A stretch of 64,000 nucleotides of DNA, taken from the NCBI RefSeq assembly GCF_055900595.2, contig NZ_CM148325.1; one strand, 5' to 3'. Positions 6,364 through 54,507 of the stretch are shown here, one piece after another (positions within the stretch are counted from its first letter, which is position 1; every line of letters starts with the position of its first letter). The notes under the pieces are model-generated. The model was not told where the DNA came from, ran no database searches, and saw only the letters and a program-made list of their open reading frames with translations. The position numbers and the translations under genes are program-made.

Positions 6364-6561
6364 TCAATAATGACTATTTAGTGGAGTATCAAGGGTGTTT
6401 TCCACCGTTTGGTGACCCGTATCAATGCGCATCAATTTATGGTCAGTCGAAATCATGACTTTCCAGTTTGGATTATGTTGTACAACTTTCTGACCAAGGT
6501 GTTCGACGAAAGCTGTCCGGCTAACCGCTTTTCCCGTTAATCGATGGAATAATGATTTCAA
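6364..6561 (-). CDS. Small hypothetical protein (65 aa)
   Basis: ORF with a GAGAGGG Shine-Dalgarno about 7 nt before the ATG, 36 bp downstream of acuI in AT-rich sequence. I do not recognise the protein. Confidence 0.35.
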   Translation of the reverse strand: MKSLFHRLTGKAVSRTAFVEHLGQKVVQHNPNWKVMISTDHKLMRIDTGHQTVENTLDTPLNSHY

Positions 6562-27492: not shown

Positions 27493-27508
27493 GTCTTTCA
27501 CGTTGGCC

Positions 27509-34538: not shown

Positions 34539-35906
34539 TTAATAAAATAGCGTGATTGTGGCAATCATATTCACCACGAAACCGACTGCCATGGGGATCG
34601 CTGTCCGCTTCACCACTGCAAAAGGCGAAACACCTGCAATTCCTGATGTAACGACCACCACCGCAGTAATCGGCGAAACAGCGCGCGCTAGCGTCGTGGC
34701 AAAATGCATCGGCATAATCATTACAACCGCAGGTACATGTAGTCCGGCTGCGATATTCGGAATAAGACTGGCAAATGACATAAATGGCGCATTGCCTGAG
34801 CCCATCACAATGGCACAAATGGCAATGACCAGCGCCATAATAATCATCACGCCAATACCGCCCAGACCAGAATGCTCCGCACCCCTGATAACCGCATCGA
34901 CAGTGCCAATTGTCGTTAAGCCCTTCGCAAATATTTCACCCGCGACCACCAGCGTTACCACGTTGGCAAACTGCGTACCCATGCCGTCAAAAAACGCCTG
35001 CACATCGTCCATTGTTTCGCGCAAATTATGCTTGCGGAAAAACTCAACAAACATCGTCACCGTCAAACTCAGTAACATCACCACCACCAGATGCAGTTCT
35101 GACTGCATCAGTCCAGCGTGGGCGAGGAACAGCGAGCCGAGCATCAGGATTAACGGCATCACCGGTAAAATGGCGTAATAAAGCGGTGGGACATTATCGA
35201 GAGCTTTTTGCTCCGCCTGCTCGTGATTGATATTTTTATCTTTTTTGTCAAAAGCGCGTTGCACGAAAAAGTGAGAGATCGCTACCGAGATAATGACGCA
35301 AGAGGCGACCGGAAGCTGGTAGTGGAAGAAGTAAGTGGCAATTTTCATTCCTGCCACCTGGGCCGCAAAAATAGAGTTCGTTTCCAGAATCCCCCACTCA
35401 ATGGACATCGTGGTTGCGATAACTGCCACCGCAGAGAGTCGACTTACTCCCAGACTCACCAGTGTCGGAAATAAGGTGACCATCAGCAACATACCCAGAC
35501 CGGAGGCGCTGGTAATAAACTGCGCCATGATTTGGCCGATGACGTAAGTTGCCGACAGAATAATATACGGCGAGCGAATGAGTTTTAACGGGCGGCTTAA
35601 CAAGCTCACCATCGCCCGACTGGCTCCTATGCGCTCCATGTAGCGGGCATACCCGCCCACCGCCATAATCGACAACCCTAACCCGGCAATGCGGTTGGAC
35701 AGCATGCGCAGGATTTCATTATAAATATCGACGATCAAGTAGCCGCTGCTTTGGGTGGGATCGAGTACTCCACCGAACCCTAACCAGACACCGCACATCA
35801 TCAGGAAGATACCTGCGGCAGCCAGCACCACTTGAGGTTTGTAGTTTTTCAGGATCAAATAGCCCATCGTCATTAATACGATGACAGATATAATTATGCC
35901 GAACAT
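34539..35906 (-). CDS. dcuD: Anaerobic C4-dicarboxylate transporter DcuD (DcuC family)
   Basis: 455 aa from [37 protein letters not shown]...; polytopic membrane protein. Confidence 0.9.
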
Positions 35907-36284
35907 TGTTGAACTCCGTGTCAAAAGAAAACGGTCAATCCCATAAACGGCAGATTGAAAACAGTGATGTTATATTTTTTGCAAGGCTATTTATGGTGTT
36001 GGTGTCGTATTTTTTAATTCTGGATGAGGCAATTTTTCATTATAAAATATGCATTTATGATTATTTTGTAAGAACATATTCGTAATATTCATAATGCTTG
36101 TGAATAGTCTTATGAATAATTCATTCAGGATGTTTTATCGGCGTTACACTAATTTTCGCAATAGTTAATTATTACGTTAATTATGATAATAATGAGACAC
36201 AAAGAGAAAAAACCGCCATTTCCCCCTACTTTCAATCCTGTGATAGGATGTCACTGATGATGTTAATCACACTGACCTTACAGA

Positions 36285-37076
36285 ATGGGCCTTATGAACG
36301 CATTTGATTCGCAAACCGAAGATTCTTCACCTGCAATTGGTCGCAACTTGCGTAGCCGCCCGCTGGCGCGTAAGAAACTCTCCGAAATGGTGGAAGAAGA
36401 GCTGGAACAGATGATCCGCCGCCGTGAATTTGGCGAAGGTGAACAATTACCGTCTGAACGCGAACTGATGGCGTTCTTTAACGTCGGGCGTCCTTCTGTG
36501 CGCGAAGCGCTGGCAGCGTTAAAACGCAAAGGTCTGGTGCAAATAAACAACGGCGAACGTGCCCGCGTCTCGCGTCCTTCAGCGGACACCATCATCGGCG
36601 AGCTTTCCGGCATGGCGAAAGATTTCCTTTCTCATCCTGGCGGAATTGCCCATTTCGAACAATTACGTCTGTTCTTTGAATCCAGCCTGGTGCGCTATGC
36701 GGCTGAACACGCCACCGATGAGCAAATCGATTTGCTGGCAAAAGCACTGGAAATCAACAGTCAGTCGCTTGATAACAACGCGGCATTCATTCGTTCAGAC
36801 GTTGATTTCCACCGCGTGCTGGCGGAGATCCCCGGTAACCCAATCTTCATGGCGATCCATGTTGCCCTGCTCGATTGGCTGATCGCCGCGCGCCCAACGG
36901 TAGCTGATCAGGCTCTGCATGAGCATAACAACGTTAGCTATCAACAGCATATTGCGATCGTTGACGCGATCCGTCGTCATGATCCTGACGAAGCCGATCG
37001 CGCGTTGCAATCGCATCTCAACAGCGTCTCTGCTACCTGGCACGCCTTCGGTCAGACCACCAACAAAAAGAAATAA
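36285..37076 (+). CDS. nanR: Sialic acid regulon repressor NanR (GntR/FadR family)
   Basis: 263 aa with an N-terminal GntR helix-turn-helix. It lies immediately upstream of the nan operator and nanA. Confidence 0.93.
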
Positions 37077-37139
37077 TGCCACTTTAGTGAAGCAGATCGC
37101 ATTATAAGCTTTCTGTATGGGGTGTTGCTTAATTGATCT

Positions 37140-37162
37140 GGTATAACAGGTATAAAGGTATA
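37140..37162 (+). promoter_or_regulatory. NanR operator: three direct GGTATA repeats of the nanA promoter region
   Basis: GGTATAACAGGTATAAAGGTATA, i.e. GGTATA three times at 11-bp spacing, the known NanR binding repeat. Confidence 0.8.
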
Positions 37163-37176
37163 TCGTTTATCAGACA

Positions 37177-37185
37177 AGCATCACT
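37177..37185. repeat. IS10 target-site duplication, left copy
   Basis: AGCATCACT immediately outside the IS10 outside end; identical to the 9 bp at 38515-38523. Confidence 0.9.
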
Positions 37186-37230
37186 CTGATGAATCCCCTA
37201 ATGATTTTGGTAAAAATCATTAAGTTAAGG

Positions 37231-37300
37231 TGGATACACATCTTGTCATATGATCAAATGGTTTCGCCAAAAATCAATAATCAGACAACAAAATGTGCGA
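37231..37300 (-). ncRNA. IS10 antisense RNA-OUT (from pOUT); position inferred from the canonical IS10 map
   Basis: In canonical IS10, pOUT fires outward from about element position 115 and RNA-OUT ends near position 46. These are mapped onto the window by offset; no independent signal was checked. A dam GATC site at the pIN -10 region (CATATGATCAAATGG) is present. Confidence 0.45.
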
Positions 37301-38501
37301 ACTCGATATTTTACACGACTCTCTTTACCAATTCTGCCCCGAATTACACTTAAAACGACTCAACAGCTTAACGTTGGCTTGCCACGCCTTACTTGACTGT
37401 AAAACTCTCACTCTTACCGAACTTGGCCGTAACCTGCCAACCAAAGCGAGAACAAAACATAACATCAAACGAATCGACCGATTGTTAGGTAATCGTCACC
37501 TCCACAAAGAGCGACTCGCTGTATACCGTTGGCATGCTAGCTTTATCTGTTCGGGCAATACGATGCCCATTGTACTTGTTGACTGGTCTGATATCCGTGA
37601 GCAAAAACGGCTTATGGTATTGCGAGCTTCAGTCGCACTACACGGTCGTTCTGTTACTCTTTATGAGAAAGCGTTCCCGCTTTCAGAGCAATGTTCAAAG
37701 AAAGCTCATGACCAATTTCTAGCCGACCTTGCGAGCATTCTACCGAGTAACACCACACCGCTCATTGTCAGTGATGCTGGCTTTAAAGTGCCATGGTATA
37801 AATCCGTTGAGAAGCTGGGTTGGTACTGGTTAAGTCGAGTAAGAGGAAAAGTACAATATGCAGACCTAGGAGCGGAAAACTGGAAACCTATCAGCAACTT
37901 ACATGATATGTCATCTAGTCACTCAAAGACTTTAGGCTATAAGAGGCTGACTAAAAGCAATCCAATCTCATGCCAAATTCTATTGTATAAATCTCGCTCT
38001 AAAGGCCGAAAAAATCAGCGCTCGACACGGACTCATTGTCACCACCCGTCACCTAAAATCTACTCAGCGTCGGCAAAGGAGCCATGGATTCTAGCAACTA
38101 ACTTACCTGTTGAAATTCGAACACCCAAACAACTTGTTAATATCTATTCGAAGCGAATGCAGATTGAAGAAACCTTCCGAGACTTGAAAAGTCCTGCCTA
38201 CGGACTAGGCCTACGCCATAGCCGAACGAGCAGCTCAGAGCGTTTTGATATCATGCTGCTAATCGCCCTGATGCTTCAACTAACATGTTGGCTTGCGGGC
38301 GTTCATGCTCAGAAACAAGGTTGGGACAAGCACTTCCAGGCTAACACAGTCAGAAATCGAAACGTACTCTCAACAGTTCGCTTAGGCATGGAAGTTTTGC
38401 GGCATTCTGGCTACACAATAACAAGGGAAGACTCACTCGTGGCTGCAACCCTGCTTACTCAAAATCTATTCACACATGGTTACGTTTTGGGGAAATTATG
38501 A
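37293..38501 (+). CDS. IS10 transposase
   Basis: 402 aa, [151 protein letters not shown]..., recognised as the IS10/Tn10 transposase. Full length with no frameshift. Confidence 0.97.
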
Positions 38502-38514
38502 GGGGATCTCTCAG

Positions 38515-38523
38515 AGCATCACT
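38515..38523. repeat. IS10 target-site duplication, right copy
   Basis: AGCATCACT, identical to 37177-37185. Confidence 0.9.
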
Positions 38524-38535
38524 TCAGAGGTATTT

Positions 38536-39429
38536 ATGGCAACGAATTTACGTGGCGTAATGGCCGCACTCCTGACTCCTTTTGATCAACAACAAGCACT
38601 GGATAAAGCGAGTCTGCGTCGCCTGGTTCAGTTCAATATTCAGCAGGGCATCGACGGTTTATACGTGGGTGGTTCTACCGGCGAAGCCTTTGTACAAAGC
38701 CTTTCCGAGCGTGAACAGGTACTGGAAATCGTCGCCGAAGAGGCGAAAGGCAAGATTAAACTCATCGCCCACGTCGGTTGCGTCAGCACTGCTGAAAGCC
38801 AACAACTTGCGGCATCGGCTAAACGTTATGGCTTCGATGCCGTCTCCGCTGTCACGCCGTTCTACTATCCTTTCAGCTTTGAAGAACACTGCGATCACTA
38901 TCGGGCAATTATTGATTCGGCGGATGGTTTGCCGATGGTGGTGTACAACATTCCGGCGTTAAGCGGCGTTAAACTGACCCTGGATCAGATTAACACTCTG
39001 GTTAAGTTGCCTGGTGTCGGCGCGCTGAAACAGACCTCTGGCGATCTCTATCAGATGGAGCAGATCCGTCGTGAACATCCGGATCTGGTGCTCTATAACG
39101 GTTACGACGAAATCTTTGCTTCTGGTTTGTTGGCGGGCGCTGATGGTGGTATCGGCAGTACTTACAACATCATGGGCTGGCGTTATCAGGGTATCGTGAA
39201 GGCGCTGAAAGAAGGCGATATCCAGACCGCGCAGAAGCTGCAAACCGAATGTAATAAAGTCATTGATTTACTGATCAAAACGGGCGTATTCCGCGGCCTG
39301 AAAACGGTCCTGCACTATATGGATGTCGTTTCTGTGCCGCTGTGCCGCAAACCGTTTGGTCCGGTCGATGAAAAATATCTGCCAGAACTGAAGGCGCTAG
39401 CCCAGCAGTTGATGCAAGAGCGCGGGTGA
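38536..39429 (+). CDS. nanA: N-acetylneuraminate lyase
   Basis: 297 aa from [52 protein letters not shown].... The six-frame ORF's extra 20 N-terminal codons run into the IS10 inside end. Confidence 0.96.
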
Positions 39430-39537
39430 GTTGTTTCCCCTCGCTCGCCCCTACCGGGTGAGGGGAAATAAACGCATCTGTACCCTACAATTTTTATACC
39501 AAAGCGTGTGGGCATCGCCCACCGCGGGAGACTCACA

Positions 39538-41028
39538 ATGAGTACTACAACCCAGAATATCCCGTGGTATCGCCATCTCAACCGCGCACAATGGCGCGCA
39601 TTTTCCGCTGCCTGGTTGGGATATCTGCTTGACGGTTTTGATTTCGTTTTAATCGCCCTGGTACTCACCGAAGTACAAGGTGAATTCGGGCTGACGACGG
39701 TACAGGCGGCAAGTCTGATCTCCGCAGCCTTTATCTCTCGCTGGTTCGGCGGCCTGATGCTTGGCGCTATGGGCGACCGCTACGGGCGTCGTCTGGCAAT
39801 GGTTACCAGTATCGTTCTCTTCTCGGCCGGGACGCTGGCCTGCGGCTTTGCGCCAGGCTACATCACCATGTTTATTGCTCGTCTGGTCATCGGCATGGGG
39901 ATGGCGGGAGAATACGGCTCCAGCGCCACCTATGTCATTGAAAGCTGGCCAAAACATCTGCGTAACAAAGCCAGTGGCTTTCTGATTTCCGGCTTCTCGG
40001 TGGGTGCCGTCGTTGCCGCTCAGGTCTACAGCCTGGTGGTTCCGGTCTGGGGCTGGCGAGCGCTGTTCTTTATCGGCATTTTGCCAATCATCTTTGCTCT
40101 CTGGCTGCGTAAAAACATTCCGGAAGCGGAAGACTGGAAAGAGAAACACGCAGGTAAAGCACCAGTACGCACGATGGTAGACATTCTTTACCGTGGTGAA
40201 CATCGCATTGCCAATATCGTAATGACGCTGGCGGCGGCCACTGCGCTGTGGTTCTGCTTCGCTGGTAACCTGCAAAATGCCGCAATCGTCGCTGTTCTCG
40301 GGCTGTTATGTGCCGCAATCTTTATCAGCTTTATGGTTCAGAGTACGGGCAAACGCTGGCCAACGGGCGTAATGCTGATGGTGGTTGTGTTATTTGCTTT
40401 CCTCTACTCATGGCCGATTCAGGCACTGCTGCCAACGTATCTGAAAACCGATCTTGCTTATGACCCGCATACTGTCGCCAATGTGCTGTTCTTTAGTGGC
40501 TTTGGGGCGGCTGTGGGTTGCTGTGTCGGCGGCTTCCTCGGTGACTGGCTGGGAACCCGCAAAGCGTACGTTTGTAGCCTGCTGGCCTCGCAACTGCTGA
40601 TTATTCCGGTATTTGCGATTGGTGGCGCAAACGTCTGGGTGCTCGGTTTGTTACTGTTCTTCCAGCAAATGCTTGGACAAGGGATCGCCGGGATCTTACC
40701 GAAACTGATTGGCGGTTATTTCGATACCGACCAGCGTGCAGCGGGCCTGGGCTTTACCTACAACGTTGGCGCATTGGGCGGCGCACTGGCCCCAATCCTC
40801 GGCGCGTTGATCGCTCAACGTCTGGATCTGGGTACTGCGCTGGCATCGCTTTCGTTTAGCCTGACGTTCGTGGTGATCCTGCTGATTGGGCTGGATATGC
40901 CTTCTCGCGTTCAGCGTTGGTTGCGCCCGGAAGCGTTGCGTACTCATGACGCTATCGACGGCAAACCATTTAGCGGTGCCGTGCCGTTTGGCAGCGCTAA
41001 AAACGATTTAGTCAAAACCAAAAGTTAA
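39538..41028 (+). CDS. nanT: Sialic acid:H+ symporter NanT (MFS)
   Basis: 496 aa from [36 protein letters not shown].... Confidence 0.95.
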
Positions 41029-41074
41029 TCCTGTTGCCCGGTCTTCTACCGGGCCTTTCGCTAAGGGAAGATGT

Positions 41075-41760
41075 ATGTCGTTACTTGCACAACTGGATCA
41101 AAAAATCGCTGCTAACGGTGGCCTGATTGTCTCCTGCCAGCCGGTTCCGGACAGCCCACTCGATAAACCTGAAATCGTCGCCGCCATGGCATTAGCGGCA
41201 GAGCAGGCGGGAGCGGTTGCCATTCGTATTGAAGGTGTGGCAAATCTGCAAGCCACGCGTGCGGTGGTGAGCGTGCCAATTATCGGGATTGTCAAACGCG
41301 ATCTGGAGGATTCTCCGGTACGCATCACGGCATATATTGAAGATGTCGATGCGCTGGCGCAGGCAGGCGCGGATATCATCGCGATTGACGGCACCGACCG
41401 ACCGCGTCCGGTGCCTGTTGAAACGCTACTGGCACGTATCCACCATCACGGTTTACTGGCGATGACCGACTGCTCAACGCCGGAAGACGGCCTGGCATGC
41501 CAAAAGCTGGGAGCCGAAATTATTGGCACTACGCTTTCTGGCTATACCACACCTGAAACGCCAGAAGAGCCGGATCTGGCGCTGGTGAAAACGTTGAGCG
41601 ACGCCGGATGTCGGGTGATTGCCGAAGGGCGTTACAACACGCCTGCTCAGGCGGCGGATGCGATGCGCCACGGCGCATGGGCGGTGACGGTCGGTTCTGC
41701 TATCACACGTCTTGAACACATTTGCCAGTGGTACAACACAGCGATGAAAAAGGCGGTGCT

Positions 41761-41764
<4 letters not shown>
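41075..41764 (+). CDS. nanE: N-acetylmannosamine-6-phosphate 2-epimerase
   Basis: 229 aa, [30 protein letters not shown].... Confidence 0.95.
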
Positions 41765-43097
<1,333 letters not shown>

Positions 43098-54395: not shown

Positions 54396-54507
54396 CCCCG
54401 GCTAGACCGGGGTGCGCGAATACTGCGCCAACACCAGGGAAATCTTGGCTGCGCCGTAAATTTTTATGATGAGTTACAAGGGCACAGCACTTTTTTTCAG
54501 GCCGCAC
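54386..54507 (-). ncRNA. arcZ: sRNA ArcZ (RyhA/SraH), convergent with and overlapping the arcB 3' end
   Basis: The minus strand reads GTGCGGCCTGAAAAAAAGTGCTGTGCCCTTGTAACTCATCAT...GGCGCAGTATTCGCGCACCCCGGTCTAGCCGGGGTCATTTTTTT, matching the ArcZ sequence and its terminator as I recall them. Confidence 0.85.

Follow-up and report, generated by a model that had tools for sequence, protein, structure and literature searches.

In one Escherichia coli strain, an ordinary intact copy of the insertion sequence IS10 has jumped into the leader between the nan promoter and nanA. The stretch of DNA analysed here (64,000 nucleotides, called the window in the following) is that of E. coli, with accBC, mreBCD, the nan operon, gltBD, arcB and rpoN. 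The insertion probably acts as a polar mutation with partial loss of function: the nan operon is expected to be strongly down-regulated, with a residual expression which is low and mostly constitutive, and the regulated use of sialic acid would probably be crippled. The insertion site is previously unrecorded, and no link between IS10 and the E. coli nanA promoter was found in the literature searched. The element and the class of effect are both well known, and the mutation is of a routine kind.

The insertion and the nan locus

The element and the repeats which enclose it occupy the following positions.

37177–37185: left copy of the target duplication, AGCATCACT, 9 bp (from the sequence; 5408 genomes have one copy of the target in their empty site)
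37186–38514, plus strand: IS10, 1329 bp, outside end at left and inside end at right, collinear with the Tn10 copies of plasmid R100
38515–38523: right copy of the target duplication, AGCATCACT, 9 bp (from the sequence)

As read from the window sequence, the two repeats are identical, and the end motifs of IS10, CTGATGAATCCCC and CTGAGAGATCCCC, occur once each in the 64-kb window. An earlier note on this DNA had described an intact IS10 with a perfect 9-bp duplication, produced by a recent and unrearranged transposition. The repeats and the exact termini agree with this description, as do the intact state of the element and an ancestral target which is present once. The size of 1329 bp and the full-length transposase of 402 residues are likewise confirmed by the window sequence and by the open reading frame.

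For the empty site, IS10 and one copy of the repeat were deleted in silico and the resulting 600-bp product was searched against 5426 complete E. coli genomes. It is found with at least 80% coverage in 5408 of them and at 100% identity in eight, where nanR and nanA are annotated directly across it. Since the empty site carries a single copy of the target in these 5408 genomes, the two AGCATCACT repeats represent the duplication of one ancestral target, as the earlier note had held. Both 300-bp junctions of IS10, searched with the same coverage threshold, are found in none of the 5426 genomes. Furthermore, the right junction was detected neither among GTDB species-representative contigs nor among JGI metagenome contigs. 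The exact NanA protein occurs in 851 blocks of the assembly index, and nanR is directly adjacent to nanA in all of the 24 contigs examined. Within the collections searched, the insertion is private to this genome.

E600003, isolated from human stool in Bangladesh, and its relatives are collinear with the window, in which IS10 is the only insertion. Only 3 SNPs separate the flanks (36010–37185 and 38515–62999) from E600003; IS10 is therefore located in clonal-frame DNA and arose in situ. On this evidence, the event is a genuine and recent transposition. A recent date fits with the full length of all nan genes and with the identity of nanA, nanT, nanE and nanK to the DNA of the relative. In addition, the eight closest chromosomes yield essentially no extra IS10 places with an IS10-containing query, and IS10 seems to have reached this lineage only recently. 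Two other origins were considered and ruled out. An import of IS10 by recombination together with foreign flanks is contradicted by the DNA on either side, which is clonal with the relatives; a Shigella-like, IS-rich background is contradicted by the absence of any other IS from the window and by its collinearity with E600003 elsewhere.

The target is a poor one. AGCATCACT matches the preferred target NGCTNAGCN at three of the six specified positions and departs once, in either orientation, from the relaxed consensus NRCNNNGYN. The window also contains 10 perfect GCTNAGC sites, all of which are unoccupied. A target resembling NGCTNAGCN is a preference of IS10 and no requirement. Off-consensus insertions are well documented (PMC4574204, PMC2744996) and common, so a weak target chosen while perfect sites are empty hints at selection only faintly, if at all.

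The surrounding locus comprises these features.

36285–37076, plus strand: nanR, 263 aa, intact (NCBIfam NF003011 NanR, 408.9 bits against a cut-off of 260)
37086–37101, plus strand: candidate CRP-like site, AGTGA-N6-TCGCA, read from the sequence
37140–37162, plus strand: NanR operator, GGTATA-ACA-GGTATA-AA-GGTATA (from the sequence; definition in PMC8012715 and PMC3658417)
37142–37147, plus strand: candidate −10-like element, TATAAC, read from the sequence
38526–38530, plus strand: nanA Shine-Dalgarno sequence, AGAGG, untouched and identical to the empty-site genomes
38536–39429, plus strand: nanA, 297 aa, intact (TIGR00683, 571.8 bits against a cut-off of 382)
39538–41028, plus strand: nanT, 496 aa, intact (NF003024, 948.9 bits), no difference from E600003
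41075–41764, plus strand: nanE, 229 aa, intact (NF002231, 340.5 bits)
41761–42636, plus strand: nanK, 291 aa, intact (NF047821, 509.7 bits)
42633–43097, plus strand: yhcH/nanQ, 154 aa, intact (NF040884, 235.5 bits), one SNP against E600003 at 42864

The order nanA-nanT-nanE-nanK-yhcH is kept, and all five genes are full length and score above the NCBIfam cut-offs. The DNA is identical to that of the annotated relative E600003 over 36010–37185, which includes nanR, and over 38515–42863, which includes nanA, nanT, nanE and nanK. The hallmark of the NanR regulon is present, with the (GGTATA)3 operator by the promoter and nanR immediately upstream. Normally, the spacer between nanR and nanA measures 121 bp and holds the promoter and the operator contiguous to nanA. 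This contiguity is broken here: IS10 and the duplicated target push the native promoter region and the operator 1338 bp further from nanA, in accordance with the separation of about 1.3 kb between promoter and nanATEK-yhcH given in the earlier note. That note had also placed the element between the NanR operator (37140–37162) and the Shine-Dalgarno sequence and ATG of nanA, which is correct. IS10 lies on the downstream side of the operator, 23 bp away from it. On the other side, the ATG of nanA (38536, where PGAP also starts nanA in the closest relative) follows 21 nt after the inside end of IS10 and 12 nt after the right repeat; the previously stated distance of 12 bp upstream of the start codon holds when measured from the repeat.

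If the CRP-like site is centred at −61.5 and TATAAC serves as the −10 element, transcription would start at about 37154–37155. IS10 would then be inserted at about +31 (about 30 nt past the predicted start) of a leader of about 43 nt, which would place it within the transcribed leader. The NanR operator is located downstream of the RNA polymerase site (PMC8012715), and the position of IS10 inside the leader follows from this published arrangement and from our own reading of the sequence.

A mechanically derived open reading frame of 317 aa (38476–39429) begins at an ATG in the inside end of IS10 and continues in frame through the repeat and the leader into nanA, to which it adds a 20-residue extension. 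A real NanA fusion was ruled out because no Shine-Dalgarno sequence precedes this ATG, and the frame is probably unused.

Identity of the IS10 copy

Within the element, the following features are recognized.

37231–37300, minus strand: RNA-OUT (Rfam RF00240, 97.3 bits against a gathering score of 41, full length 1–70), IS10 nt 46–115, on the opposite strand
37252–37255: dam site GATC, IS10 nt 67, in the pIN −10 region
37293–38501, plus strand: IS10 transposase gene, 402 aa (NCBIfam NF033591, IS4 family transposase, 402.4 bits against a cut-off of 152)
38505–38508: dam site GATC, IS10 nt 1320, in the inside end

The copy starts at its left with the outside end CTGATGAATCCCC and finishes at its right with the reverse complement of the inside end CTGAGAGATCCCC. 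These terminal inverted repeats are imperfect, with 17 of the first 23 positions matching between the two ends. Alignment to both IS10 copies of Tn10 in plasmid R100 is collinear and free of indels, and the first 23 and the last 29 nucleotides are the same as in both. Four substitutions (nt 24, 25, 27 and 47) distinguish the window element from the gltS-proximal R100 copy and 11 from the tetD-proximal one. The word canonical, used in the earlier note for the ends, is slightly loose for the element as a whole, whose transposase is the common natural allele and not that of the tetD-proximal copy.

The distribution of the differences gives the copy a mosaic appearance: nt 24–47, at the outside end, agree with the tetD-proximal R100 copy and all the rest agrees with the gltS-proximal copy. 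Positions 83 and 107, in the region of the start codon where RNA-IN and RNA-OUT pair, differ from the tetD-proximal copy. We take the latter to be the textbook IS10-Right; if so, the window element joins the commoner natural transposase allele to an outside end of the IS10-Right type.

The transposase is identical to that of the gltS-proximal R100 copy and differs by 4 residues from that of the tetD-proximal copy. It corresponds to WP_001352368.1 / UniRef100 Q6Q515 ‘IS10 transposase’ (n=793), the most frequent IS10 allele in nature; the second one, with n=189, also occurs as a contaminant in human clones. The catalytic residues D97, D161 and E292 are present, as are the Y-R-E-K residues (Y285, R288 and K299), in the residue numbering of the Tn10 transposase. 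GATC is found in IS10 only at nt 67 and nt 1320, both of them expected places of dam control, and the part which these sites play in IS10 has been described (PMC5006887). All the defining IS10 features tested are thus present, namely collinearity, ends, 9-bp duplication, DDE transposase, RNA-OUT and dam sites.

Many IS10/ISVsa5 copies in plasmids and E. coli genomes share 99.7–100% identity with the window copy. A 100% identical copy is found in only 2 E. coli records, and neither R100 copy is identical to it. With at least 80% coverage, IS10 is present in 1173 of the 5426 complete E. coli genomes (~22%), in up to ~45 places per genome. The occurrence of the same transposase allele in genomes with up to ~45 copies suggests that the element is able to transpose.

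Orientation of IS10 and predicted effect on nan expression

The orientation of the element, which the earlier reading left out of account, is central to its likely effect. The outside end faces nanR. Since RNA-OUT is encoded on the minus strand, pOUT, which is the strong outward promoter, is directed toward nanR and away from nanA. In the documented activating IS10 insertions, pOUT faces the activated gene (PMC2744996, PMC4574204), and it reads into the gene in 20 of the 20 activating insertions of PMC2744996. This hallmark of activation, with pOUT and the outside end toward the gene, is absent here, as the strand of RNA-OUT indicates.

Toward nanA, only weak IS10 promoters and read-through from the native promoter appear able to reach the gene. 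Two such promoters, pIII and OUTIIp, are reported to be weak, to read toward the inside end and to lie within IS10 nt 1000–1230, according to PMC11481808 (which cites Simons 1983 and Martinez-Garcia 2003) and PMC4574204. The corresponding segment of the window is the following.

38185–38415, plus strand: IS10 nt 1000–1230, reported pIII/OUTIIp segment toward the inside end and nanA (location from PMC11481808)

Its sequence is identical to that of both R100 copies. Transcription of nanA from within IS10 is more likely to originate from pIII/OUTIIp than from pIN. A strict promoter scan of IS10 returned no promoter-like site and also missed the known promoters pIN and pOUT; with such strictness, its negative result does not argue for absence. 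A relaxed consensus scan gave no strong hexamers and a single poor candidate, TTCACA-19-AATTAT, near the inside end, which is evidence neither way. The plus strand of IS10 contains no convincing intrinsic terminator: there is one weak hairpin, fewer than expected by chance from shuffled sequence. This sole terminator-like structure (37553–37568, with a 5-bp stem) is probably meaningless.

We propose the following course of events. In this lineage alone, a single IS10 of the active type has recently moved to a non-preferred AGCATCACT target in the leader of nanATEK-yhcH. Neu5Ac-inducible transcripts of the native promoter would then have to traverse 1.3 kb of IS10 before reaching nanA. In a modelled read-through RNA (37155–37330), the AUG region of the transposase pairs with IS10 nt ~50–63 (dG −35.9, z −2.3). 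Davis, Simons and Kleckner reportedly described such a fold-back protection of IS10 in 1985, and the modelled pairing matches it. Together with RNA-OUT and Hfq, whose control of the IS10 transposase has been described (PMC5006887), this fold-back would keep the transposase frame untranslated. Rho-dependent polarity would cause the loss of most native-promoter transcripts within this untranslated frame of ~1.2 kb. As pOUT would fire the wrong way, toward nanR, weak pIII/OUTIIp alone would feed nanA, beyond the reach of NanR.

The main rival to this reading, and a credible one, is that the insertion is incompletely polar. The native NanR/CRP promoter would read through IS10, and the operon would remain inducible and the strain Nan+, with a lower maximum. 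We consider this outcome unlikely, on the grounds that Rho classically acts on RNA such as this, ~1.2 kb long and essentially untranslated, that fold-back pairing and RNA-OUT/Hfq (PMC5006887) hold the transposase frame untranslated, and that transcription from pOUT converges on the native promoter. Its credibility comes from the absence of a convincing or significant terminator-like structure on the plus strand of IS10 and from the strength of the promoter, which is induced up to ~1000-fold (PMC3658417); with such an induction, even a few percent of read-through could support growth on sialic acid. Moreover, the stop codon of the transposase is located only 35 nt before the ATG of nanA, the Shine-Dalgarno sequence is intact and so is every nan gene. 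Incomplete polarity of Tn10/IS10 insertions has a precedent (Morgan 1980, as cited in PMC11481808), and these reports, the lack of a convincing terminator and the strong induction all weaken the loss-of-function reading. The silencing of sialic acid catabolism, or its dependence on read-through from IS10, which the earlier note had expected, is plausible. Native-promoter transcripts which read through IS10 would still be controlled by NanR and CRP, so the uncoupling from NanR expected in the same note is not guaranteed.

It is improbable that the insertion was selected as a regulatory rewiring, in which pIII/OUTIIp would give useful, constitutive and NanR-independent nan expression as an activation or derepression allele. 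Outward promoters are reported at both ends of IS10 (PMC4574204, refs 24 and 25; PMC11481808), and the use of a target matching at 3 of 6 positions while 10 perfect GCTNAGC sites stayed empty is compatible with selection. However, the promoter behind the documented IS10 activations (PMC2744996, PMC4574204), pOUT, faces away from nanA, the relaxed scan offers one poor candidate near the inside end, and the insertion is private to one genome. The wild-type operon is also strongly inducible already, and a weak constitutive level would bring little obvious gain. We give an equally small chance to a broader form of this idea, a regulatory allele selected in an enteric E. coli lineage either for low constitutive expression from the inside end or for a deliberate shut-off of sialic acid catabolism. 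If this were true, a Neu5Ac-inducible nan promoter would fire into the outside end of IS10, and the regulation of IS10, along with convergent pOUT and antisense transcription over nanR, would be coupled to a host-derived sugar signal. Least probable of all, and very much so, is an artefact: IS10 misplaced by the assembler, or an insertion which arose during laboratory passage and is absent from the natural population. IS10 transposes readily in culture (PMC4574204, PMC2744996), and no other genome of the collections searched shares the insertion. Yet exact termini and a perfect 9-bp duplication of a target which is single-copy in thousands of genomes mark a real transposition as opposed to a mis-assembly, and an origin in laboratory passage would leave the nature of the allele unchanged. 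A polar, partial loss of function thus remains the reading which we prefer.

Related insertions and genomic surroundings

The closest analogue is PJ23116::IS10 on a mevalonate-pathway plasmid (PMC11481808), where IS10 has the same orientation: it is inserted in or just after the promoter, with the inside end toward the downstream operon. Expression was reduced in this case and not abolished, and the residue was attributed to pIII or OUTIIp in IS10 nt 1000–1230, a segment which is identical in the window IS10. The two systems differ in that PJ23116 is synthetic, constitutive and plasmid-borne, in a laboratory strain, whereas the present case concerns a chromosomal catabolic operon under repressor and CRP control in a natural-type E. 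coli. Use of an IS10 promoter other than pOUT by a downstream gene, as proposed here, is also reported for IS10R upstream of rpoS, the source of OUTIIp (Martinez-Garcia et al. 2003, J Bacteriol 185:2046, as cited in PMC4574204 and PMC11481808).

Two further insertions share the position of the present one and differ in orientation. PotsBA::IS10 arose in evolved rpoS-null E. coli at +12/+13 of otsBA, in the leader or promoter (PMC2744996), and the IS10 upstream of cat in pSU vectors lies between the −10 element and the cat reading frame (PMC4574204). As here, both are in non-optimal targets with 9-bp duplications and cut the gene off from its native regulation. In contrast to the window, where RNA-OUT and pOUT face away from nanA, pOUT faces and activates the gene in both.

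The dcuC gene of E. coli SX23 is interrupted by the same element (4 nt different), with a 9-bp duplication, 2.6 kb from nanA. This SX23 copy is exactly the gltS-proximal R100 copy. Unlike the nanA insertion, it occupies a perfect hot-spot, TGCTCAGCA, within a coding sequence and represents a simple knockout. SX23 had seemed to share an IS10 within a 25-kb region with the window; its copy proved to stem from a separate event, in dcuC.

Mucus supplies gut E. coli with sialic acid, which serves as a major nutrient and as a signal. The breakdown of sialic acid and of N-acetylglucosamine in EHEC acts back, via NagC, on the expression of virulence genes (PMC5401889). With its nan operon severed from the promoter, a strain may differ in colonisation or in competition. 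Furthermore, the allele could be a convenient natural test of IS10 polarity, of the little-studied inside-end promoters and of the protection of IS10 against strong external transcription. Otherwise it is one more private IS insertion, unsurprising to a specialist and worth an annotation line in the record of the strain.

Relatedness to E600003 changes sharply along the window, from the 3 SNPs of the segments 36010–37185 and 38515–62999 to ~250 (~1%) in 12000–35220. Over 14000–35300, the best match among complete E. coli genomes does not exceed 99.1%. The pattern resembles a recombination boundary, located in dcuC or in the dcuC-nanR spacer, 1.2–2 kb to the left of IS10. In the window, dcuC (34539–35924, minus strand) is intact, with an open reading frame of 461 aa (NF007317, 1023 bits), and is without a GCTNAGC site. 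Other strains have a damaged dcuC: in E600003 an internal stop makes it a pseudogene, in a metagenome contig it is split, in E200086 (L009) an IS3-family transposase takes its place or lies beside it, and in SX23 IS10 interrupts it at TGCTCAGCA.

No tRNA genes were found in the window. The comparison with E600003 shows a break between two BLAST segments at ~6388–6419, in the accB-acuI spacer, and, at 27495–27500, a 1-nt deletion and a 1-nt insertion which compensate each other at a distance of 5 nt. The only Rfam match in the window other than RNA-OUT is the small RNA ArcZ, located by arcB (54400–54507, minus strand; RF00081, 118.7 bits).
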